Below, in pieces: positions 1,121 to 37,738 of a DNA stretch of 64,000 nt (position 1 is the stretch's first letter; each line of letters starts with the position of its first letter). The stretch is from the IMG/VR virus record IMGVR_UViG_3300025383_000010. One strand, written 5' to 3'. The translations under genes and the position numbers were made by a program. This DNA is from a virus. The notes beneath the pieces are model-generated. The model made no database searches, was not told the DNA's origin, and saw only the letters and a list, made by a program, of their open reading frames with translations.

Positions 1121-4050
1121 TGAGAGCAAAACATTTTCTTGAACTATATGAGGCTCAGCAAGAGTTATTTGAAGTTGAAATGAGTCCTTCAAATCTCAAG
1201 AAGTTGGCCGCTGGTGTTCCTGGTGCCAAAGTTGGCATAGAGTTTGAAATGGTCGTCCCTGATGTTGAAATTGATGATGAAGATAGATATGACGAGCCAG
1301 AAGAAGATTATAGCCATGATCCACGTCCCGATGATATTGATGACATCGTTCGTTTCTTTGGTGGTGAAGACGAGTATGTTGGACAACAGAATAGTGATCG
1401 TGAAGTAGAACGACTAGGCGAAGAACTTACTGAAAAGTTTCATGAATGGCAAACTGAGCAGATTGACAATGATTGGAATGGTCCAGATGGTAAAGGCTTC
1501 TTTAGAGACTGGTGTCACAATAACATAAGTGATGAAGACGTTGCCGAGCATGTAGGCAAAGGAGAAGACTTATTCGGAGAAACAGTTCCCGACAAAGAAG
1601 ATTGGGAAAAGTTTATTGAAGATGAATGGGACGAACAGGGCGATAATTATAATAGAGCCTATGAAGAATATATTGAAACTAAACGAGACGAAGGTGACTT
1701 TAGCGAAAGAGACTTTTTGCACGACATTGGCATTGATGAGATGTCGGATGTTATGAGACGAGTTAACGCAAATATTTCGTGGCCATATTACACTGCGCCG
1801 GAATCTAGTTATGGTGGTGGTGAAGCCATTGAATCTATCGGTGATGATTTTAGTGAGGCAATTGGCAAAAAAGTTTATTCAAGCAGTGATTATCACGGCG
1901 CACGTAGAGCACCGGATGCATACTCATTAGAAACTGATAGTAGTATTAATCATAGATCAGGTGAAGCTGGATTAGAGTTTATCAGTCCTCCCATGCCTGT
2001 TGATGAAATGATTGAAGACTTAAAGAAAGTTAAAGAATGGGCTGATGACCGCGGAGCATATACTAATAATTCAACTGGTCTGCACATTAACGTTAGTGTT
2101 CCTAACTATAGTCGTGATGACCTTGACTATGTAAAGTTAGCTATATTACTTGGCGACAAGTATGTATTAGATAAGTTTGGACGTATTGGCAATACATATG
2201 CTAAATCAGCACTTGACATTATTAAAGAAAGAGCTAATAGTCCAGCAGATGTTGATAGACTATTAAAGCAATTAAAAGGCAATATGGAAACTATTGCTAG
2301 TAAATTAATTCACAGTGGTCGCACTAACAAGTATACTAGTATTAATACTAAAGATAGCTACGTAGAATTCCGTAGTGCAGGTGGCGATTGGCTTGACAAA
2401 AACTTTGATAAGATTGAAGATACATTATTGAGATTCGTAGTAGCACTTGATGCTGCCTGCGATCCAAAGAAGTATAAGAAAGAATACTTAAAGGGTTTGT
2501 ATAAGTTGCTCAAGCCTAAGGATCCAAAGAGCGATATGAGCTATCTTGCTCGTTATATGGCTGGGGAAATCACTCGCTCAGAATATGCTAAGCAGCTTGA
2601 AAAAACTCGCACCGAACGTTTTAAAGACCAAGGTATTAGAATCCTTCACCCAGATGATGTTGAAGAAAACGATTGGGTAGTAGAATATAACGATGGTAAG
2701 AAAGAAAATACCATTTATATTGCAAACACTGATACAGTTCCTGATGAGTCATCCGCATTTAAGGCCGCACAAAAGTTCAAGCCAAATTGGTTTAGACCAG
2801 ACACGATTGAATATATCACTGTAAAGCCATTTAAGTTTGACCCTTCATTAGATGATCTTAAACTATATCGTGCTGACTATGGTCATGGGCTTACCAGCGT
2901 TGTTGCAGAAAACGAAGAAGAAGCAAGAGATTATGTACTAGCAATGAATCCGGAATATTTTGCAGCACATCCCAATACTGAAATCACGTTGACTGACGAA
3001 CATGCTAGTAAGCGTCAAATTAATCAGATGATTGAATGGCAAACTAATAAAGTTCGTGAGGGTCTAGAATGGTCACAGCGTCCAAAGATTTGGCGTGTTA
3101 GAGTAGTTGATGGATCAAATGGTTATCAACGCTACTTCTTTATAGCTGCAACTACAAGAGATAACGCAATTAATGTAGCGAATAAACTTGAAGGTGAAGA
3201 CGTAGAAGGTATGCAAGGGTTTGATATGTATATAGATCAAAACTATCCTGATGAGGACACATATCAAGAATATGAAAAAGCGCAAGAAGATTTAATTCAA
3301 CAACGTGAACAAGAAAGACAGCGAGATAGAGAAACTACTGAGTTCAATAAAGCCGGCGAAGATGAAACTATTGACATTAGTAATCTAAAGACATATCGTT
3401 TAAGCAATTACAATGGTTATGCATATTTTGTTGCTGAAAATGGTGCTGAGGCTGTTGAAATAGCTATGAAATTAGAACCTGATAAGTTTGTTCGTCCAGA
3501 AGATATTACGGTACAAGATCAATCAGGTTTAGTATCTACCAGCCAGCCTTCGTTAATGCGTAGTATGTATAAGAGTCAGCAAGAAAAGTTAGCCCGTCTT
3601 GAGCAGTCTACTCAACCTGAGCAGTATAGCGTTTATGACACAAGCAATGGCCGCGGCGACAATATCTTTATTGCAGCAAGAACACCAGTTGAAGCGCATA
3701 CAATCGCTGCTAGACTATACCCTGATATCTTCAATGATGAAATAAGAACAGAGAGATATGGTGCCGCTACGCAAATGGATGCTAATAGATTATTGCGACA
3801 GCAAGCCGCAAGAGAGCAGGCATTAAGACAATCTAATCCACAATTTAGCGGATCATTTGGATCTCCAGAGCCTGCATTTAGTGAACCATCATCTACTAGA
3901 CAGTCTTGGAGAGTTCAAAATGTAGACTCCGGAGAAGCTCGCTATTTCCCGGCTATTGATATGCAGGATGCTATTAACACAGCAAGACGAGAATATCCTG
4001 CAATGTTCCCACGATCTGCGGGATTGTATGCTACACGAGCAAGTAACTAA
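1120..4050 (+). CDS. Putative amidoligase (COOH-NH2 ligase type 2) with C-terminal repeats
   Basis: GIEFEM, ETDSSI, GLEFISPPM, NNSTGLHINVS, KYTSIN and VEFRSAGG motifs; N-terminal MRAxxF; about six C-terminal repeats. Confidence 0.75.
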   Translation: MRAKHFLELYEAQQELFEVEMSPSNLKKLAAGVPGAKVGIEFEMVVPDVEIDDEDRYDEPEEDYSHDPRPDDIDDIVRFFGGEDEYVGQQNSDREVERLGEELTEKFHEWQTEQIDNDWNGPDGKGFFRDWCHNNISDEDVAEHVGKGEDLFGETVPDKEDWEKFIEDEWDEQGDNYNRAYEEYIETKRDEGDFSERDFLHDIGIDEMSDVMRRVNANISWPYYTAPESSYGGGEAIESIGDDFSEAIGKKVYSSSDYHGARRAPDAYSLETDSSINHRSGEAGLEFISPPMPVDEMIEDLKKVKEWADDRGAYTNNSTGLHINVSVPNYSRDDLDYVKLAILLGDKYVLDKFGRIGNTYAKSALDIIKERANSPADVDRLLKQLKGNMETIASKLIHSGRTNKYTSINTKDSYVEFRSAGGDWLDKNFDKIEDTLLRFVVALDAACDPKKYKKEYLKGLYKLLKPKDPKSDMSYLARYMAGEITRSEYAKQLEKTRTERFKDQGIRILHPDDVEENDWVVEYNDGKKENTIYIANTDTVPDESSAFKAAQKFKPNWFRPDTIEYITVKPFKFDPSLDDLKLYRADYGHGLTSVVAENEEEARDYVLAMNPEYFAAHPNTEITLTDEHASKRQINQMIEWQTNKVREGLEWSQRPKIWRVRVVDGSNGYQRYFFIAATTRDNAINVANKLEGEDVEGMQGFDMYIDQNYPDEDTYQEYEKAQEDLIQQREQERQRDRETTEFNKAGEDETIDISNLKTYRLSNYNGYAYFVAENGAEAVEIAMKLEPDKFVRPEDITVQDQSGLVSTSQPSLMRSMYKSQQEKLARLEQSTQPEQYSVYDTSNGRGDNIFIAARTPVEAHTIAARLYPDIFNDEIRTERYGAATQMDANRLLRQQAAREQALRQSNPQFSGSFGSPEPAFSEPSSTRQSWRVQNVDSGEARYFPAIDMQDAINTARREYPAMFPRSAGLYATRASN

Positions 4051-23510: not shown

Positions 23511-23522
23511 TTGGAGAGAGAT

Positions 23523-24200
23523 ATGTATAAACTATACAAAATAACCAATTCGGTTAATAACAAGCTATATATCGGTATAACTAAACTGAAGATTGAGCAA
23601 CGATGGTCTCAACATGTAAAAGATTCCGAAAATCCTGAATATCCCCTGCACCGAGCGATAAAGAAATACGGAGCGGATAGTTTTGCGGTTGAACTACTAG
23701 AAGAATCGGATGATCGGAACTATATCAGTGAGTTAGAAGAACCCACTATTCAAAAATACAACAGCAGAAAAGATGGATACAACGTTGCTAAAGGGGGTTA
23801 CGGAGGGGACCTCGGTCCAGAAGCCAATCGGAAACGAAGCACTACCTTATTAAATCGTCCCGAAGATGTTAAAAAGCACTATTCTGATATGCAGCGCAGC
23901 CGGCGGCTAGGTAAAACCAAAGACAATGATCAAGGTAGGAAGGCCCAATCCGAAAAGATAAAAGGCAACGCCTTTGCTCAAGGGCTAACACATTCGCTCG
24001 AAACCAAACAAATAATAAGCGAAGCTAATAAGGGTCCAAAGTCCCAAAAGACTAGACAAAAGATGAGCGAAAGTGCTATACTTAATAATAACGGAGCAAG
24101 ATTTGAGAGACACAACAGTTGTTGTCTCTGTTGCCGCCGAGAGTTTAATAAGGGCAACCTAGTACAACATTTAAGAAGGATGAATAAGAATGAGCTTTAA
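23523..24200 (+). CDS. Free-standing GIY-YIG homing endonuclease (Seg-like, NUMOD3)
   Basis: LYKITNSVNNKLYIGIT, RWSQH, GYN and HSLETKQIISEA. Confidence 0.85.
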   Translation: MYKLYKITNSVNNKLYIGITKLKIEQRWSQHVKDSENPEYPLHRAIKKYGADSFAVELLEESDDRNYISELEEPTIQKYNSRKDGYNVAKGGYGGDLGPEANRKRSTTLLNRPEDVKKHYSDMQRSRRLGKTKDNDQGRKAQSEKIKGNAFAQGLTHSLETKQIISEANKGPKSQKTRQKMSESAILNNNGARFERHNSCCLCCRREFNKGNLVQHLRRMNKNEL

Positions 24201-24867
24201 TAAGAGTAAGTGTGATCCGGCGTTAGGTCAACAAGTTCACGAATATCTCGTAAAGATGGGAGTTGAAACACCGACAGTTGACAATGGACTGAGCCGTACT
24301 GATAAGATTGAAATCATTGAGCGTAAGTTTAAGGATATTATGGAGACTCTCGGGCTTGACCTAACTGATGATAGCTTAGAGGAAACCCCGAAGCGGGTCG
24401 CTAAAATGTATGTAGGAGAAATCTTTTGGGGACTTGACTATGAAGCATTCCCCAAGTGTACAACTGTTGCGAACAAGATGGGCTATGATGAAATGGTCGT
24501 TGAACGCAACGTGAATGTACAAAGTAATTGTGAACATCATTTTGTAATCATTGACGGTCTTGCTACTGTTGCTTATGTTCCCAACGAAAAGGTTCTTGGT
24601 CTCTCAAAGATCAATCGTATCGTTGAGTACTTTGCAAAGCGTCCTCAGATTCAAGAGCGACTAACTGAGCAGGTATTCCACACTCTTTGCTATATCCTTG
24701 AAACTGACAATGTTGCAGTTATGATTGATGCACAGCACTATTGCGTTAAGAGTCGCGGTGTTGAAGATACTGGTTCGTCAACTGTGACTTGTAAGCTCGG
24801 TGGTGGATTCAAGACTGATCCTGCAGCAAGAGCAGAGTTTCTTAGCATCGCACGAATGGGCAAGTGA
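24190..24867 (+). CDS. folE: GTP cyclohydrolase I
   Basis: ETPKRVAKM, CEHHF, GLSKINR, RPQIQERLT and HYCVKSRG. Confidence 0.95.
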   Translation: MSFNKSKCDPALGQQVHEYLVKMGVETPTVDNGLSRTDKIEIIERKFKDIMETLGLDLTDDSLEETPKRVAKMYVGEIFWGLDYEAFPKCTTVANKMGYDEMVVERNVNVQSNCEHHFVIIDGLATVAYVPNEKVLGLSKINRIVEYFAKRPQIQERLTEQVFHTLCYILETDNVAVMIDAQHYCVKSRGVEDTGSSTVTCKLGGGFKTDPAARAEFLSIARMGK

Positions 24868-25852: not shown

Positions 25853-26572
25853 ATGAGCAAGCGATTAACCAAAGACGAGTTTGTTAGTAGAGCAGTTGAA
25901 GTACATCAAGGCAAATATACTTATGATAATGTAGAATATAAGGCTATGCTAGAAAAGGTAAGCATCACTTGTCCTATTCATGGTGATTGGATGCAGAAGC
26001 CGGCTGATCATTTAGGAAAACACGGATGCCCGAAATGTAAAGCTGACAAGGCCGGGGGCAAGTGGGATGACATTAAAGTTCTGTTTGAACAAGTTCATGG
26101 TTCCTATTATTCATACGATGAATCTACCTTTACTAGAATATCTGTGAAGATGAAGATGTTTTGCCCTGATCACGGTGAGTTTTGGCAGAAGCCAGAGCTT
26201 CATAAAAACGGTTCCGGGTGCAAACTATGCACTGCGAGTAGTGGTCCTGGAAAGTATTGTGAATCTGTGTTTGCTAAGAAACCCGAACTCAAAGAAACTC
26301 CCGGAGTTTTATACTTTATAGAACTAAATGATACCGATGGTACTAAGTTCTATAAAGTAGGAATCACTATGAATATGCGTACTAGGTATTATGACTTTAT
26401 TACTCGCAATGGAGGCAGGATTTGTTGGACTAAAGAATCTAATCTGTATGATTGTTTCCAACAAGAACAAGCTATTCTTAAAGAATACGCAGACTTTAGT
26501 TATTATCCGGAACTAGCAATGGCAGGTAAAACAGAATGTTTATCAAAGGAGATTGAATATGATATTCAATAA
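25853..26572 (+). CDS. Putative homing endonuclease: CPxHG zinc-ribbon repeats plus GIY-YIG/T5orf172-like C-domain
   Basis: CPIHG..GCPKC and CPDHG..GCKLC repeats; LYFIEL..YKVGIT..R; GKTEC. Confidence 0.7.
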   Translation: MSKRLTKDEFVSRAVEVHQGKYTYDNVEYKAMLEKVSITCPIHGDWMQKPADHLGKHGCPKCKADKAGGKWDDIKVLFEQVHGSYYSYDESTFTRISVKMKMFCPDHGEFWQKPELHKNGSGCKLCTASSGPGKYCESVFAKKPELKETPGVLYFIELNDTDGTKFYKVGITMNMRTRYYDFITRNGGRICWTKESNLYDCFQQEQAILKEYADFSYYPELAMAGKTECLSKEIEYDIQ

Positions 26573-27017
26573 GATTAAAGAACTTAAAGAGCAAGGAAAG
26601 CGGATAGGGATAACATTTAGCGCATGGGACCTACTTCATGCCGGACACATCGCCATGCTTGCCGAAGCCAAAAATCACTGTGACTATCTGATTGCCGGGC
26701 TACAGACTGATCCAACCATTGATCGCCCAGATACAAAGAACAAGCCTGTCCAGTCAATCGTTGAACGTCAAATCCAACTTAGTGCATGTCGCTTTGTTGA
26801 CGAGATTGTGGTTTACGAAACGGAAAAAGATTTGGTAGATTTACTCTTGACATTGCCCCTAGATTGTCGTATATTGGGTGTAGAGTATGAAACTACAGAC
26901 TTTACTGGTCGCAAAGAATGTGAGCATCGTAATATTGAGTTAATCTTTAACAGCCGCGATCATAGCTTTAGTTCAAGTATTCTTCGTAAACGTGTAGCAC
27001 AAGCAGAAGGAAAGTAA
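26559..27017 (+). CDS. Cytidylyltransferase (TagD/glycerol-3-phosphate CTase-like)
   Basis: DLLHAGH (HxGH), GLQTDP and RDHSFSSS. Confidence 0.85.
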   Translation: MIFNKIKELKEQGKRIGITFSAWDLLHAGHIAMLAEAKNHCDYLIAGLQTDPTIDRPDTKNKPVQSIVERQIQLSACRFVDEIVVYETEKDLVDLLLTLPLDCRILGVEYETTDFTGRKECEHRNIELIFNSRDHSFSSSILRKRVAQAEGK

Positions 27018-27672: not shown

Positions 27673-27785
27673 TGCTTCACTTAGCCTTACACCTGTCACC
27701 GTGAACTACACACTTTTATTTATCTTTTTGATTGACAAACTATCCTAAATAGTATATAGTAAGACTTTAATATAGGAGAATACAG

Positions 27786-28244
27786 ATGGCCCTCATGCTG
27801 TCATATGGCATGAACACTAACATTGCACAGATGGCTTCGCGCTGTCCTAATGCCATTAGTATTGGCCGTGTTGATATCCCCAACTATCGTCTCGTATTCC
27901 GAGGTGTTGCGGATATTGAAGAAAGCTATGGCGATACGTTACAGTGTGTTCTTTGGGACATCACTGAGAATTGTGAAAAGGCGCTGGATATCCTTGAGGG
28001 CTTCCCAGACTTTTATGGCAAGGAATATATTGACGTAACTTTTGGGAAAAAGACGTATACCGCAATGATCTATAAGATGATCGGTAGTGATCTTGGTTAC
28101 TCTATCCCGAGCAGTTACTATCAAGAAATGCTAGAAGACGGTTATGCTGATCATGGTCTAGATGTACAGCAAATCTATGAAGCAGAAGGTTTTTGTGAAG
28201 TAGAAGATACACTAGACTGGATTAACCGTCGCTATGCGTACTAA
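27786..28244 (+). CDS. Gamma-glutamylcyclotransferase (AIG2-like)
   Basis: YGMNTN..QMASRCP, YRLVFRG, LDILEG and PSSYY. Confidence 0.85.
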   Translation: MALMLSYGMNTNIAQMASRCPNAISIGRVDIPNYRLVFRGVADIEESYGDTLQCVLWDITENCEKALDILEGFPDFYGKEYIDVTFGKKTYTAMIYKMIGSDLGYSIPSSYYQEMLEDGYADHGLDVQQIYEAEGFCEVEDTLDWINRRYAY

Positions 28245-28304
28245 AGTGGTCTTTGATACTCACCCCACTATAAACATTCTGCGTGTCATCTAAGGAGAAA
28301 AAGA
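28245..28304 (+). ncRNA. Candidate preQ1-I-like riboswitch (H-type pseudoknot) upstream of queD
   Basis: P1 AGTGG (28245-49)/CCACT (28265-69); loop ends CACC; ATAAAC tail; loop TGATAC (28254-59) can pair with GTGTCA (28283-88) next to RBS AAGGAG (28292-97). Confidence 0.5.
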
Positions 28305-28847
28305 ATGTCTTTTATTGATGATGCAACTAAGAAATATAAGTTAGAAACACGACCGCAGATGTCGTACAAGTATACCAGCACTAAGGAGTGGCATGACGCA
28401 TTCCCGTGTGCATATCGTCAGTGGCGAGCCGATAGCCACTGTAATCAGATTCATGGTTACAGTTTCACTATCAAGGTATACTTTGGTGCCGACACGTTAG
28501 ACGCACGTAATTGGTGTGCAGACTACGGCGGCTTGAAGGACCTTAAGGGTATTCTTGAGGATCAGTTTGATCATACCCTTCTTGTAGCAGAAGACGATCC
28601 GGATATGGATGTGTTCAAATTGTTGCAAGAACGTGGTATGGCTAAGTTGACTATCATCCCTGCAACTGGGTGTGAAGCACTTGCCGACATGATCTATAAC
28701 TTCATCAACGGTGTTTACATTCCAGACCATTGGGGTGCAGGTGAAGCCGATCGTCTTTGGTGCTATCGCGTTGAAGTTCGTGAAACACAGAGCAACATGG
28801 CTTTCCGTGAAGGTCATCGTGAATGGCATGAGGATTTGCTGGGATGA
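28305..28847 (+). CDS. queD: QueD-like 6-carboxytetrahydropterin synthase (Cys-bearing copy)
   Basis: CAYRQWRADSHCNQIHGY, DYGGLK, FDHT, GCE and VEVRET..N.A. Confidence 0.8.
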   Translation: MSFIDDATKKYKLETRPQMSYKYTSTKEWHDAFPCAYRQWRADSHCNQIHGYSFTIKVYFGADTLDARNWCADYGGLKDLKGILEDQFDHTLLVAEDDPDMDVFKLLQERGMAKLTIIPATGCEALADMIYNFINGVYIPDHWGAGEADRLWCYRVEVRETQSNMAFREGHREWHEDLLG

Positions 28848-29006: not shown

Positions 29007-29501
29007 ATGACAAATAAAGTATACTACACCGATGAACAGATTGACACATTGGTTCATAATATCATGCGTCAAATGATCAAGGATCATTGGGTGCCTGATT
29101 ATGTTGTTGGACTGACTCGTGGGGGCCTAGTCCCTGCACTTAAGATTAGTCATTATCTCGACATTCCTATGGAGACACTTAAGGTCAGTCTTCGTGACGG
29201 TGGCGAATCTGAATCTAACTGCTGGATGGCAGAAGACGCCTACAATGGTAAGAACATTCTAATCGTTGATGATATCAATGATACTGGTGCAACACTCAAC
29301 TGGATCAAGAATGATTGGGCATGTAGCGCATTCAAACATGATCCTAAGTGGGACGGTATTTGGAATGAAAGTGTTCGCTTCGCTACATTAGTTGACAATG
29401 ACGTAAGCCTAGTTGAAGTTAACTATATCGGTGAGAGTATCAATAAGGCAGAAAACCCAGTTTGGGTCGTCTTCCCCTGGGAAGAATGGTGGAAAAGGTA
29501 G
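29007..29501 (+). CDS. Purine (xanthine/guanine) phosphoribosyltransferase
   Basis: GLTRGGLVPA, ILIVDDINDTGAT and WVVFPWE. Confidence 0.85.
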   Translation: MTNKVYYTDEQIDTLVHNIMRQMIKDHWVPDYVVGLTRGGLVPALKISHYLDIPMETLKVSLRDGGESESNCWMAEDAYNGKNILIVDDINDTGATLNWIKNDWACSAFKHDPKWDGIWNESVRFATLVDNDVSLVEVNYIGESINKAENPVWVVFPWEEWWKR

Positions 29502-29507
29502 TTGACA

Positions 29508-29738
29508 ATGTTTACATTTCAGCTTATAATTATAACTGTACTATGTGCTGCCGGGTCCTTTATATTGTACAAAAACTGGATGCATGAAATCAATTCAGGC
29601 AATAAACCGCAGTGCGTAACAAAGGGCGACATGTATTGTAATCATGTAGGTTGGTGTGATGCAGAAATCGCACTGTACCCAGATGAATATGAAATAGAAA
29701 TGAAAAGATTAAAGAATGACAAAAATCAAGATCAGTGA
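29508..29738 (+). CDS. Small membrane protein
   Basis: N-terminal TM segment. Confidence 0.45.
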   Translation: MFTFQLIIITVLCAAGSFILYKNWMHEINSGNKPQCVTKGDMYCNHVGWCDAEIALYPDEYEIEMKRLKNDKNQDQ

Positions 29739-30576
29739 ACTATTTTACTCAATTCAGGGTGAAGGTCGTTATATGGGTGTACCGAGCGTGTTCTTACGCA
29801 CGTTCGGTTGTAATTTTAAATGCAGTGGGTTCGGTATGCCCAAGGGAGAACTATCAAGTGAGCGAGAACAAATCAATCCCGAAGATTACAAGGAATATGG
29901 CGAACTTCCGCTCGTCACTACGGGATGCGACTCGTATGCATCCTGGGATCCTCGCTTTAAGCATCTTTCTCCCGTTAGGGATATTGATTCCATTGTCAAT
30001 AGTATTATGGAACTCCTTCCGTTTGGGGAATGGCGAGACGAACACCTCGTCATCACAGGAGGAGAACCACTCCTAGGTTGGCAACGTGCTTTTCCTGAAC
30101 TACTGAGTCATCCTAAGATGCAGGGTCTTAAAGAGATTACTTTTGAGACCAATGGTACTCAGGAGCTATCCCCTGCTGTTGCTGATTATCTTGAGGCTTG
30201 GGCATGGCATGATGATCGTCCGCACCCCGGCTTTGAGCGAGAAATTACTTTCAGCGTCAGTGCTAAGTTGAGTTGTTCAGGTGAGTCTCGTGAAGACGCA
30301 ATCAAGCCTGAGGTTGTTGCAAGCTATCAAAATGTAGGTCACGTTTATCTCAAGTTTGTTGTTGCAACAGAAGATGATATTAATGAAGCACTTGAAACTG
30401 TCAAGATTTATCGTGATGCAGGATTTAAGGGTGATGTTTATCTGATGCCAGTTGGTGGTGTTGAAAGCGTCTATGCTCTCAACAACAAGAATGTTGCATT
30501 GGCTGCAATGAAGCATGGTCTTCGTTATTCGGACAGGCTCCAGGTGCCACTTTTCAAAAACCAATGGGCAACTTAA
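29716..30576 (+). CDS. queE: 7-carboxy-7-deazaguanine synthase (radical SAM)
   Basis: ELFYSIQGEG, GCNFKC..(insert)..GCDS, ITGGEP and FETNGT. Confidence 0.9.
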   Translation: MTKIKISELFYSIQGEGRYMGVPSVFLRTFGCNFKCSGFGMPKGELSSEREQINPEDYKEYGELPLVTTGCDSYASWDPRFKHLSPVRDIDSIVNSIMELLPFGEWRDEHLVITGGEPLLGWQRAFPELLSHPKMQGLKEITFETNGTQELSPAVADYLEAWAWHDDRPHPGFEREITFSVSAKLSCSGESREDAIKPEVVASYQNVGHVYLKFVVATEDDINEALETVKIYRDAGFKGDVYLMPVGGVESVYALNNKNVALAAMKHGLRYSDRLQVPLFKNQWAT

Positions 30577-31904
30577 TGAAACGTATCGGATTCCTAGTTA
30601 GTTCACAGACATTGATTCCACATGGTGGTATCGGTCAGTTCACAAAGAGTTTTTGTGACTTGATGAACACACATGGAATATATGTAGATATTATCACAGA
30701 TAAGAGTCCTCAGGGTGTAGCTGATGAGTTTATCAAAGAACTCAAAGCAAATATCATCTACCCTAGCAATCCAATGCGCTATACCGATCATAGTGCTATC
30801 TTTATGTATGAGGATAGTTACTGCTATGAGCGTATGGCTAACTTTCGTGACGCTACGATCAAGGCATTAACTACGAATATTTACGATGCATTTGTGTGCA
30901 ATACCTATGAAACTATTCAGGTAATCTCTACGCTTGGATTGTCAGATTATATTCAGACTATTGCATACACTCATCTAGAAAGTCAAATCTTCAAAAATAC
31001 TAAGAATCCATTTCTTGACAGTGTAAACGAAATGATGCGTTTACAATTAAAGATGGATAACATCACTATCGGCACACAAAGTACGTTCAATAAATTGCAT
31101 TTTGACAATGCGGTTCATCTTCCTATTCCCCTTCCCGAAAAAGGCTTGTTACAAGAATATGACAAGCCTCGCGAGGGAGTATTGTTTATTGGACGTTGGG
31201 AAGAAGGTAAGAATCCTGAACTCTATCTTGACTTGATTGAACAGACTAAGCTACCTGCTCGTGTAATGACAAGTGCTAATGGTGCTAAGAAGTTTGAAGA
31301 ACGATTGAAGAAGATCGGAGTTGACTACAAGATTGCTGTCAGTGTCATTGGAGAAGAGAAGGTAGACTTCATCACAAGCTGCCGTGTAGCATTCAACCCT
31401 AGCACTGTAGAAAGCTATGGCATTGCATTTCTTGAACAGATGATTCAGCTACCTACGTTTGCGCTTGAGAATCAACGCTGGACGCAGAACTTCCCCAGCA
31501 CACAGTTCTTCACTACCAGTAAAAAGCATATGGTTGAGGATATCAAGTTTGTCTATGAGAGATATCCTACGGCAAAAGACTGGTATACTGCATATGTTTC
31601 AGTGAATCATTTCAAGATTCATGAGGATGCAGCGTTTCATAAGTGGAATCATTGTTTCAATGAGTTTGAATCTAAGAAATCAAACAACAATACAGCTAAG
31701 ATTTGTAATGAAACCACTGTTAAATATAGTGACTTTATCAAAAGTTTGAAGCGCAACATTATCTGTATTGACGATGTTAGGTCTGTGTTGTCTAATAAAC
31801 ATAAGTTTAGAATCATCTACACTGACAAGGAAACTTGGCTGACTAAGGATCCTACATTTGAACCCGTAGAAGAAGTAACTGGAATGGGATTGTTTGACTT
31901 TTGA
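30576..31904 (+). CDS. GT-B glycosyltransferase 2
   Basis: HGGIG, FIGRWEEGKNP and NPSTVESYGIAFLE. Confidence 0.8.
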   Translation: MKRIGFLVSSQTLIPHGGIGQFTKSFCDLMNTHGIYVDIITDKSPQGVADEFIKELKANIIYPSNPMRYTDHSAIFMYEDSYCYERMANFRDATIKALTTNIYDAFVCNTYETIQVISTLGLSDYIQTIAYTHLESQIFKNTKNPFLDSVNEMMRLQLKMDNITIGTQSTFNKLHFDNAVHLPIPLPEKGLLQEYDKPREGVLFIGRWEEGKNPELYLDLIEQTKLPARVMTSANGAKKFEERLKKIGVDYKIAVSVIGEEKVDFITSCRVAFNPSTVESYGIAFLEQMIQLPTFALENQRWTQNFPSTQFFTTSKKHMVEDIKFVYERYPTAKDWYTAYVSVNHFKIHEDAAFHKWNHCFNEFESKKSNNNTAKICNETTVKYSDFIKSLKRNIICIDDVRSVLSNKHKFRIIYTDKETWLTKDPTFEPVEEVTGMGLFDF

Positions 31905-34050: not shown

Positions 34051-35283
34051 ATGTCTAAGAATACTAACTTTCCTTATAATTTTGAATTTGTGACGCCTAC
34101 TGGAGAAAAGGCGATCCATCTTCTTAAGCGCAAAAAGGGTGAATACAAAAGCTGTACGGTCGCCGACCGGCTCGAACAGTTGTTTGATCCCAAGAACACA
34201 AAATGGCACAACACTATTGCTAAGTGGAAAGCTGACATTGAAGCCGGGCGGCGGAAGAAGCCAAACCGCAAAAAGCGCGGAAAGCTAGTTATGGTAAAGG
34301 TAAAAGATATCGTCATTGATGATGATATCCAGCGTGATATGGACCCGGATTGGGTAGCTACTATTGCCAACCCTAATGAATTTGAAGAAGAATTCATGAG
34401 TCCGATTTATTGTATGTATGACCCTAAGAAGAAAAAGTACATTAGCATTAACGCTCAGCACACTATCGTATTAGAGACCGCACTTGCATATCATAATCTT
34501 TGGGATGGTTATGAAGGCGATCCTATGGAACTTGAAGTTCCTGTTTTTTACTTCCTTGATGAATCTCGTTCGAAGGCCCGAAAGAGCTTTAACATCTACA
34601 ATGGTCGTATCAAGCCCATCGAACCCTATATCAAGCACAAGATGAATGTTCTCGCATATCGCGTTGACGGTGACCGCACGAATAAGGATGCTAAAAAGGC
34701 TGCCGATATTCAAACCATCAACGAAGCACAGGGTTTTGAACCTATTAGCCGCGATGATAAGAAGGCCAAGAAATTCAACTGGGCTATTACGTGTGTTGCA
34801 GAAATGATGCAGCATTACGACAGGCCTGATCGCTGGAAGTTTGTTCTCAATACTCATAAGCGTTACTGGCCTAACCACCAGCTTGATACCTCTGAGGTTG
34901 ACTTGTATGGATTCATCTATGATTACTTCGTTGAATTGAAGTATGATGTTTACAGTAAGGAGTTTGATGAGGGATTTCTGAATCCTTGCATGGCAATCAT
35001 TTGGAAGTTCTTCACTACTCCAAGCGGTTTCAAGGCTGATAGTGCTGGAACTCAGGCGCGATTTAATGCTGCAAAGACTGGACTTCCTATTGATAAGGTT
35101 AAACTTGACGATAACGGTACCTGCGTGTATCTCATGAAGTTGTATAAGCACTTCGGAGGTAAGCATGAATTGCCGATGTACGTTAACAATATGCGAGAGT
35201 CTCGGATTGGCGATCTTCTTGCGTTTGTTGATAAGGATAGGACTCTCCTAGTAGAAGAAATGACTAAGTATGGCAAGTCGTAA
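34051..35283 (+). CDS. ParB/DGQH-like domain protein
   Basis: DDDIQRDMD..W..I..F..P..INAQHT. Confidence 0.5.
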   Translation: MSKNTNFPYNFEFVTPTGEKAIHLLKRKKGEYKSCTVADRLEQLFDPKNTKWHNTIAKWKADIEAGRRKKPNRKKRGKLVMVKVKDIVIDDDIQRDMDPDWVATIANPNEFEEEFMSPIYCMYDPKKKKYISINAQHTIVLETALAYHNLWDGYEGDPMELEVPVFYFLDESRSKARKSFNIYNGRIKPIEPYIKHKMNVLAYRVDGDRTNKDAKKAADIQTINEAQGFEPISRDDKKAKKFNWAITCVAEMMQHYDRPDRWKFVLNTHKRYWPNHQLDTSEVDLYGFIYDYFVELKYDVYSKEFDEGFLNPCMAIIWKFFTTPSGFKADSAGTQARFNAAKTGLPIDKVKLDDNGTCVYLMKLYKHFGGKHELPMYVNNMRESRIGDLLAFVDKDRTLLVEEMTKYGKS

Positions 35284-37526: not shown

Positions 37527-37738
37527 TGACTATGCATATTAACAGATTTCTGGACAAGATGGCAGTAATGGACTCCAAACAAAACAAGGATGTCGTATTA
37601 CCCATCAGTGACGCCAGAGGCTTGCGTGATGACATTACCAGACTTTTATCTGACTTGTATGAACTACAGAAGCAGAAAGATACTGATGGCACTAAGGAAG
37701 TCATTCAGGTCGAGATTAAAGGCGGTACATTTAAATGA
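37526..37738 (+). CDS. Hypothetical protein
   Basis: TAATG-coupled; TAAATA upstream. Confidence 0.6.
   Translation: MTMHINRFLDKMAVMDSKQNKDVVLPISDARGLRDDITRLLSDLYELQKQKDTDGTKEVIQVEIKGGTFK

Follow-up and report, generated by a model that had tools for sequence, protein, structure and literature searches.

Here we show that the leader of a queD-like gene in a viral genome (IMG/VR record IMGVR_UViG_3300025383_000010) of an uncultured giant phage contains a conserved H-type pseudoknot that is absent from Rfam and tied exclusively to QueD-family genes. The window, a stretch of 64,000 nt to which all coordinates refer unless stated otherwise, is a minus-strand slice of this 113.5-kb record, the completeness of which is put at ~31% by CheckV. 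The element lies in the 60-nt gap (28245-28304) between the stop codon of a GGACT-like open reading frame (ORF; stop at 28242-28244) and the ATG of the queD-like gene (28305). It is nearly certain, in our judgement, that this is a real structure and one specific to queD-like genes of phages, and fairly probable that positions 28245-28288 are the aptamer of a phage-specific, riboswitch-like leader, a candidate regulator of a gene in a DNA-modification pathway. The leader is called riboswitch-like because invariant unpaired bases at a helix junction are combined with covarying helices in the leader 5' of a metabolic gene. No published description of this RNA was found in the literature.

Comparative evidence for the queD leader pseudoknot

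The first-pass annotation of the window had described the gap as a five-pair stem whose loop pairs with the 3' tail, and the sequence and pairings it gave are present letter for letter at 28245-28307. On the plus strand, the first helix (P1) joins AGUGG (28245-28249) to CCACU (28265-28269), and its two top G-C pairs are invariant. Loop L1, UCUU (28250-28253), is conserved at its second and third positions (CU) and varies at the first. The second helix (P2) contains a variable part in which UGAUAC (28254-28259) pairs with GUGUCA (28283-28288). These six pairs had been correctly identified, but the earlier description was incomplete, as the helix runs further: past a conserved U.C mismatch (28260/28282) it continues with the pairs C28261-G28281 and A28262-U28280, so that P2 consists of two conserved pairs, the conserved mismatch and three to six variable pairs, 8-9 positions altogether. 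The conserved UCRNC (28260-28264) occupies invariant alignment columns and ends in C28264, which adjoins the P1 3' strand and is invariant across all aligned sequences. An 8-nt A-rich loop, L3 (28270-28277, positions t1-t8), carries invariant A's at t3, t5 and t7 and a pyrimidine at t8. It is followed by the core UCYGC (28278-28282), the U, C, G and C of which are invariant, while the Y covaries with the purine of L2. A strong Shine-Dalgarno (SD) sequence, AAGGAG (28292-28297), can be read from the sequence 3 nt beyond P2, outside the aptamer. The gene that follows (28305-28847, plus strand) encodes a T-fold protein of the QueD/PTPS family, of the CxxxHGY type, matched by Pfam PF01242 at 1.9e-17.

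A search of viral contigs for relatives of QueD yielded 80 loci, and comparison of the 170 nt upstream of each gene revealed a shared motif with plain compensating changes. When 33 distinct leaders were aligned with MAFFT, without regard to structure, 93.3% of the P1 and P2 cells were paired, against 30-50% when the partners were slid. Compensatory changes on both sides were found in 10 of 13 pairs, and none of 500 shuffles reached the observed score. These statistics recurred on 100 distinct sequences and on 54 further ones, the three alignments giving 89-93% paired cells against 30-55% in slid controls. Covariation, which the first-pass annotation had named as the evidence to look for, is thus abundant in both helices. 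P1 is paired at 99.4-100% in the three alignments; three of its positions covary (AU/UA, GC/CG/UA and UA/CG) and both top pairs are G-C in 100/100 and 51/51 sequences. Among the 100 sequences, the inner four positions of P2 are 86-94% paired with five or six standard pair types each, the equivalent of C28261-G28281 is retained in every one, and the purine-pyrimidine (R-Y) pair next to it is AU in 95 and GC in 5.

A covariance model, R1, was built from P2 only, with P1 left outside the model structure; P1 is nevertheless 99.4% paired in the 100 sequences. Run on 520 kb of fetched loci, R1 gave 49 matches and no weaker ones, one per locus, on the strand of the gene and immediately 5' of queD. 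It has exactly one match in the window's own 113.5-kb genome, and finds one copy in each of ~210 fetched viral contigs, just 5' of a QueD-family gene. The same association emerged from a scan blind to the gene, in which a degenerate pattern of the invariant bases was sought with P1 and P2 complementarity and the neighbouring gene unconstrained. With A and U at the R-Y pair, this pattern occurs in at least 119 viral stretches. All 80 loci fetched from among them score 31-70 bits with R1 and carry a QueD-family ORF downstream (with a small ORF between in two, and one cut by the contig end), and these downstream proteins share as little as 27% identity with the QueD of the window.

Four such scans, differing only at the L2 purine and the core pyrimidine, returned at least 119 stretches for A/U, at least 120 for G/C, one for A/C and two for G/U. 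Both G/U stretches were rejected by R1 as chance. R1 confirmed 77 of 79 new loci of the G/C class, all with QueD downstream, and aligning them reproduced the helix statistics. The lone A/C stretch is genuine: it is the second leader of contig L342 (IMGVR_UViG_3300010885_044600), whose two leader-queD units lie at ~1928 and ~4159 in oriented coordinates, 2.2 kb apart. On a FastTree phylogeny of 215 distinct QueD proteins, a quick tree from which leaders may depart by recombination, the state of the R-Y pair changes at least 32 times, and the pair is therefore not the product of one inherited event.

A further signal links L3, fixed at 8 nt in every instance, to P1. Positions t4 and t6 covary with the third pair of P1 (mutual information 0.78-0.84): where this pair is U-A, t4 is A and t6 is not A (40/41), and where it is C-G, t6 is A (89/89). 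Supported branches of the QueD tree give ~12 phylogenetically independent contrasts, in which t6 changed with P1 ~11 times and never against it (p ~0.001). By analogy with preQ1-I, such covariation is what an L3 strand lying in the groove of P1 predicts.

Approximately 17 invariant bases, mostly unpaired, are gathered at the P1/P2 junction. N-C-U directly follows the GG of P1 in all 33 distinct leaders that were found through QueD alone. In 130 parsed sequences the first base of L1 is U in 54, C in 41 and A in 35 (U28250 in the window's copy), and the eighth base of L3 is U in 89 and C in 41, with an invariant UC between it and the next paired base. The window's leader taken alone is no different from chance in its structure, its minimum free energy (MFE) being -12.8 kcal/mol against -11.5 +/- 2.7 for shuffles (z = -0.5).

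Two of the patterns together place the motif in at least ~240 IMG/VR contigs, including complete jumbo phages of 330-380 kb. One genome each of 185,579 prokaryote species gave 20 pattern matches, of which R1 and a check for QueD rejected 16 as chance and accepted four (L205, L209, L217 and L221). The latter are 5-8 kb contigs of metagenome-assembled genomes, all binned to Bacteroidota (Crocinitomicaceae, Chitinophagales and an unclassified bin), and are probably phage fragments; the binning may hint at hosts or may be mis-binning. Two variants of the leader, searched with blastn in 50,697 phage records (GenBank phages), gave nothing real. R1 found no copy in the cultured DpdL-encoding phages PA5oct, Phosso, RHph_I1_18, phiST and Ahp1, nor in the queD region of ACP17.

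Expression platform and direction of control

Across the family the SD lies 2-22 nt beyond P2 and the start codon 17-41 nt after P2, a distance because of which any control would act on translation. Three styles of expression platform can be distinguished. In the hairpin style, the SD forms the 3' arm of a hairpin whose 5' arm shares two C's with the P2 3' strand. In a second style, to which the window's closest relatives belong, the AUG region can pair with the end of the P2 3' strand. In the window's own style, part of L3 and the core (28274-28280) is complementary to 28302-28308; the resulting 7-bp helix, which is present in the MFE structure, spans the AUG and is incompatible with the folded aptamer. 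Folding of the knot would in each style remove the masking strand, which implies an ON switch.

Thermodynamic modelling modestly favours this direction. Opening of the window's ribosome-binding site (RBS) is computed to cost 7.7 kcal/mol with the aptamer free, 2.8 with it sequestered and 6.2 +/- 1.3 in shuffled sequences; the corresponding medians over 106 sequences are 7.4, 3.8 and 6.0 kcal/mol. The natural aptamer masks the RBS more strongly than the shuffle mean in 83 of 106 sequences, and the 5' arm of the SD helix overlaps the P2 3' strand or core in 60 of 106. Opening of the SD only gave a weak contrast (3.7 versus 3.2 kcal/mol in shuffles) and was superseded by the whole-RBS measure. 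The opposite logic, in which L1 would pair with the SD and extend P2, was rejected, since L1 must span P2 and cannot pair with the SD simultaneously. If the leader is a riboswitch, ON is in our view somewhat the likelier direction.

A sigma-70 promoter close to consensus is embedded in 74 of 166 distinct leaders, in one fixed register relative to the RNA (for example at 2005-2050 of locus L061 and 2958-3003 of locus L022). Its -35 element (TWTACA) coincides with L3 and the base that ends the P1 3' strand, the spacer is 17-18 nt, and the extended -10 element (TGnTATAAT) falls in the loop of the SD hairpin. This promoter is absent from the window's own copy and its clade, though the knot is kept there.

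Several points weigh against a leader that switches queD ON. The thermodynamic preference is modest (median z only 0.6), and relatedness among the sequences inflates p-values. The alternative helix of the window is not common to its closest relatives, whose complementary partner differs. The embedded promoter of other relatives would start transcription 3' of the aptamer and bypass any switch, and biosynthetic genes are not usually switched ON by their end product, should that be the ligand.

Pathway context and candidate ligands

The leader stands within a cluster of 7-deazaguanine genes. Upstream, a 153-aa T-fold paralogue (P0001; 21274-21735, plus strand) bears the motif LxxxHRHxF, which is the signature of DpdL, the proposed 7-carboxy-7-deazaguanine (CDG) decarboxylase of phages with 7-deazaguanine DNA (Cui et al. 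2023, PMC10516641). P0001 shares 35-68% identity with hypothetical proteins of phiST (CGPG_00067), ACP17, PA5oct, Phosso and others, and its sequence points to 7-deazaguanine modification of DNA. FolE (24190-24867) is preceded by a GIY-YIG/NUMOD3 homing-endonuclease-like ORF (23511-24200, plus strand) that overlaps the folE start, and endonuclease genes of this kind interrupt the cluster in relatives. A cytidylyltransferase-like gene (26553-27017) and the GGACT-like ORF (27786-28244) lie ahead of the leader; a purine phosphoribosyltransferase (PRTase)-like gene (29007-29501, plus strand), a QueE-like radical-SAM gene (29716-30576) and a glycosyltransferase gene (30564-31904) follow queD. Sigma-70-like promoters on the plus strand at 26847-26875, 27732-27760 and 29502-29530, with 11-12 of 12 consensus positions and 17-nt spacers, are spread across the cluster; one of them, a perfect match, precedes a small ORF before queE. 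The second of them (11/12) is the likely promoter of a transcript carrying the GGACT-like ORF, the leader, queD and the PRTase-like gene, as predicted from its match and position. Promoters of this type argue for a proteobacterial host.

The window's QueD-like protein matches TIGR03367 (QueD) below the cut-off, and its sole sequence match in the PDB is 7v0f, a 6-carboxytetrahydropterin (CPH4) synthase. In nearly all QueD-like proteins that come with the leader, the canonical CxxxHGH and AAH give way to CxxxHGY and to CAY or AVF, so that two of the three zinc-binding histidines are replaced; the protein of locus L164 keeps the canonical HGH. Judging from these residues, the CxxxHGY-type enzyme may not be an ordinary CPH4 synthase.

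FolE, QueD, QueE and a paralogue with the DpdL signature, without QueC, match a 2'-deoxy-7-deazaguanine (dDG) pathway of the phiST/ACP17 kind. QueC was not found in the ~31% complete record, and 20 large motif-bearing contigs, including three of 333-382 kb that are at least 92% complete, yielded only short, weak PP-loop matches. The ~31% complete record likewise gave no Pfam match to tRNA-guanine transglycosylase (TGT)/DpdA; DpdA3 is too remote for simple profile searches (PMC10516641). With QueC not found and a DpdL-like gene present, the pathway seems to end at CDG or 7-deazaguanine, and preQ0 and preQ1 seem not to be phage products here. This fits the suggestion of the first-pass annotation that the ligand is perhaps not preQ1, as no queC or queF had been seen.

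The invariant C would read the ligand, and a guanine-like face is thus to be expected. Candidates that suit the sequence include 7-deazaguanine, CDG, preQ0 or preQ1 of the host, guanine or GTP, and pterins, the product of FolE among them; the sequence by itself does not tell these apart.

A purine PRTase-like gene lies 3' of queD in most leader-bearing loci and could make a 7-deazaguanine nucleotide or salvage bases; an HhH-GPD glycosylase-like gene is often found between it and queE. The genes upstream of the leader vary, and the leader often abuts their stop codon directly. QueD relatives without the leader are mostly located directly behind queE. In part of the G/C class (L042-L048, L065-L072 and L228-L301), the leader-queD unit comes directly after genes for ClpP and an Rv2179c-like exoribonuclease and is followed by iron-sulphur assembly and ferredoxin genes, with no queE within 3 kb; this subgroup represents another phage lineage that carries the RNA.

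Explanations of the leader and their meaning

We consider the leader a candidate small-molecule riboswitch, and probably one in fact. In the mechanism we propose, the 5-bp P1 would be stacked under the long P2, with the A-rich L3 running along P1. A small guanine-faced heterocycle would bind the junction against C28264, be it 7-deazaguanine or CDG from the FolE-QueD-QueE-DpdL pathway or a pterin or guanine precursor, and would lock P2 and L3 in place. Without ligand, the 3' half of the aptamer would pair with the ribosome-binding region, through 28274-28280 and 28302-28308 over the AUG in the window, and through the P2 3' strand as an anti-SD or anti-AUG sequence in relatives. Ligand binding would free the RBS and turn on translation of queD and, probably by coupling, of the PRTase-like gene. 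Ligand binding, the identity of the ligand and the ON direction are what we infer; the knot itself is observed.

A translational operator that binds protein is an unlikely alternative to this riboswitch-like leader. The QueD-like enzyme itself or a RegA-like repressor would bind the knot in the manner of gp32 on T4 gene 32, the leader of which also carries an H-type pseudoknot that governs translation of a T4-like phage gene. A strict one-to-one link with one protein family would suit such autogenous control, and the phage belongs to the T4-like giants, a group that uses RNA operators. The T4 pseudoknot differs in that it nucleates protein binding and is without a conserved junction pocket, whereas no protein partner is indicated for the queD leader. 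Its invariant bases are instead placed at a preQ1-I-like helix junction, as is typical of small-molecule pockets. In addition, the RNA core remains invariant across QueD proteins whose identity falls to 27%, and nothing in the T-fold enzyme suggests RNA binding.

A constitutive structural element that senses nothing, and serves only to keep the RBS unmasked, to insulate it from the upstream ORF or to protect the mRNA, seems quite improbable. The knot is predicted to be stable, the variable upstream genes and the frequently abutting stop codon are compatible with such a role, and the internal promoter of many relatives shows that knot-free expression is tolerated. Approximately 17 invariant, mostly unpaired bases together with the U.C mismatch nevertheless exceed the needs of a stable knot, and the fact that aptamer and RBS have stayed complementary implies two states.

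That the leader is an ordinary class I preQ1 riboswitch we regard as very unlikely. It would then belong to RF00522 as a divergent member, bind preQ1 or preQ0 in the known alpha mode and repress queD once product accumulates. Class I comprises types I-III, with examples in B. subtilis (queC), T. tengcongensis, C. antarcticum and E. coli. The likeness in layout that the first-pass annotation pointed out holds. Both RNAs are small H-type pseudoknots in which the loop of a 5-bp P1 pairs with the 3' tail to form P2, with an invariant C directly 5' of the P1 3' strand, an A-rich L3 along P1, P2 just ahead of the RBS and a regulated gene of 7-deazaguanine metabolism. L3 of the phage RNA has 8 nt, as does that of the Bacillus subtilis queC aptamer. 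The class I criteria were taken from work of the Wedekind laboratory (PMC11625349 and PMC8752633), in which the pocket comprises U6, which reads N9 of the ligand, the specificity base C17, the floor pair G5-C18 and A30. C28264 corresponds to C17, and the G-C closing pair of P1 to the floor. In contrast, L1 of the phage RNA does not open with a conserved U (its U6 equivalent is U, C or A) and it is the following CU that is conserved, and the position of A30 is taken by a pyrimidine followed by the conserved UC, with the invariant A's at positions 3, 5 and 7 of L3. Its P2 rests on an R-Y and C-G base, includes the conserved U.C mismatch and, at 8-9 positions, is twice as long as the ~4 bp of preQ1-I. 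The SD is never inside P2, whereas P2 of preQ1-I contains or abuts the first SD bases or else feeds a terminator. Known preQ1-I switches are OFF switches, while the phage platforms suggest ON. The motif is found only in (uncultured) phages, before QueD-like genes of phages without QueC or QueF; with QueC not found in the record or in 20 large relatives, the phages would make no preQ0 or preQ1.

Searches with the family models agree with these differences. Across the window, cmscan with 4227 Rfam families found no match at gathering thresholds, and RF00522 had no match at E <= 10 either on 251 nt around the leader (28150-28400) or in 10 diverse relatives. Only chance matches appeared in both at low thresholds (S15 leader, freshwater-2, miRNA/snoRNA). 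Over the entire 113.5-kb record, RF00522 found nothing at the leader site. Its only matches there, at ~37559-37593 (plus strand; 11.7 bits, E 0.84) and ~34535-34559 (minus strand; 9.8 bits, E 2.5), fall short of the 39-bit gathering cut-off and were taken as chance. The identification as a class I preQ1 aptamer thus fell, on the unmatched model, the lost U6 and A30, the SD outside P2 and the ON platforms. Membership of the leader in RF00522 is highly improbable, and we place it outside the PreQ1 family; by analogy of architecture, it resembles the preQ1-I scaffold and may descend from it.

Other known aptamers are more distant. PreQ1-II, preQ1-III, SAM-II and SAM-V are likewise pseudoknotted translational aptamers with, as in the phage RNA, a pyrimidine-rich L1 that could sit in the groove of a long P2. 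They differ in that Rfam gave no match to them (cmscan of the window, the site and 10 relatives showed none to RF01054, preQ1-II, or RF02680, preQ1-III) and in that the phage P2 is not a homopurine/homopyrimidine triplex helix; the embedded hairpin of the HLout pseudoknot of preQ1-II and preQ1-III is also absent from it. THF-I and THF-II (the folE motif) are cis-regulators of the pterin branch that starts at GTP cyclohydrolase I, and read the 2-amino-4-oxo face of a heterocycle, which a cytosine pocket could also read. They differ in their hairpin or three-way junction fold, their bacterial distribution and their OFF logic, and have no sequence or model match to the phage RNA.

A DNA element (a promoter or protein site) as the source of the conservation, or a chance resemblance, is scarcely credible, even though 74 of 166 relatives have -35 and extended -10 elements over L3 and the hairpin downstream of it and the single-sequence fold is not significant, since compensatory changes run through two crossing helices with many G.U pairs that exist on the sense strand only, which led us to reject a promoter as the full explanation, and since the window's copy and its clade retain the knot without any such promoter.

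Phage-encoded riboswitches are, to our knowledge, very rare, and we know of no class restricted to phages. We tentatively raise the possibility that the leader belongs to a riboswitch class found only in viruses, derived from preQ1-I or convergent with it, which would respond to a ligand other than preQ1 by switching on the first committed enzyme of the phage pathway through which guanine in DNA is replaced. If this is so, the phage would meter its own anti-restriction DNA modification by an RNA sensor.

The motif is abundant and is found where a pathway of DNA hypermodification begins, one that defeats restriction by the host. With fewer than 50 nt, the aptamer is directly accessible to binding and structural experiments with synthetic RNA, even though neither host nor phage is in culture. 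If the leader binds a ligand, it would represent a preQ1-I-like scaffold rebuilt for a new pocket, and probably for a new ligand and with the opposite regulatory sign. It would also be a natural sensor for 7-deazapurines or pterins, and would mean that giant phages regulate the modification of their DNA metabolically.

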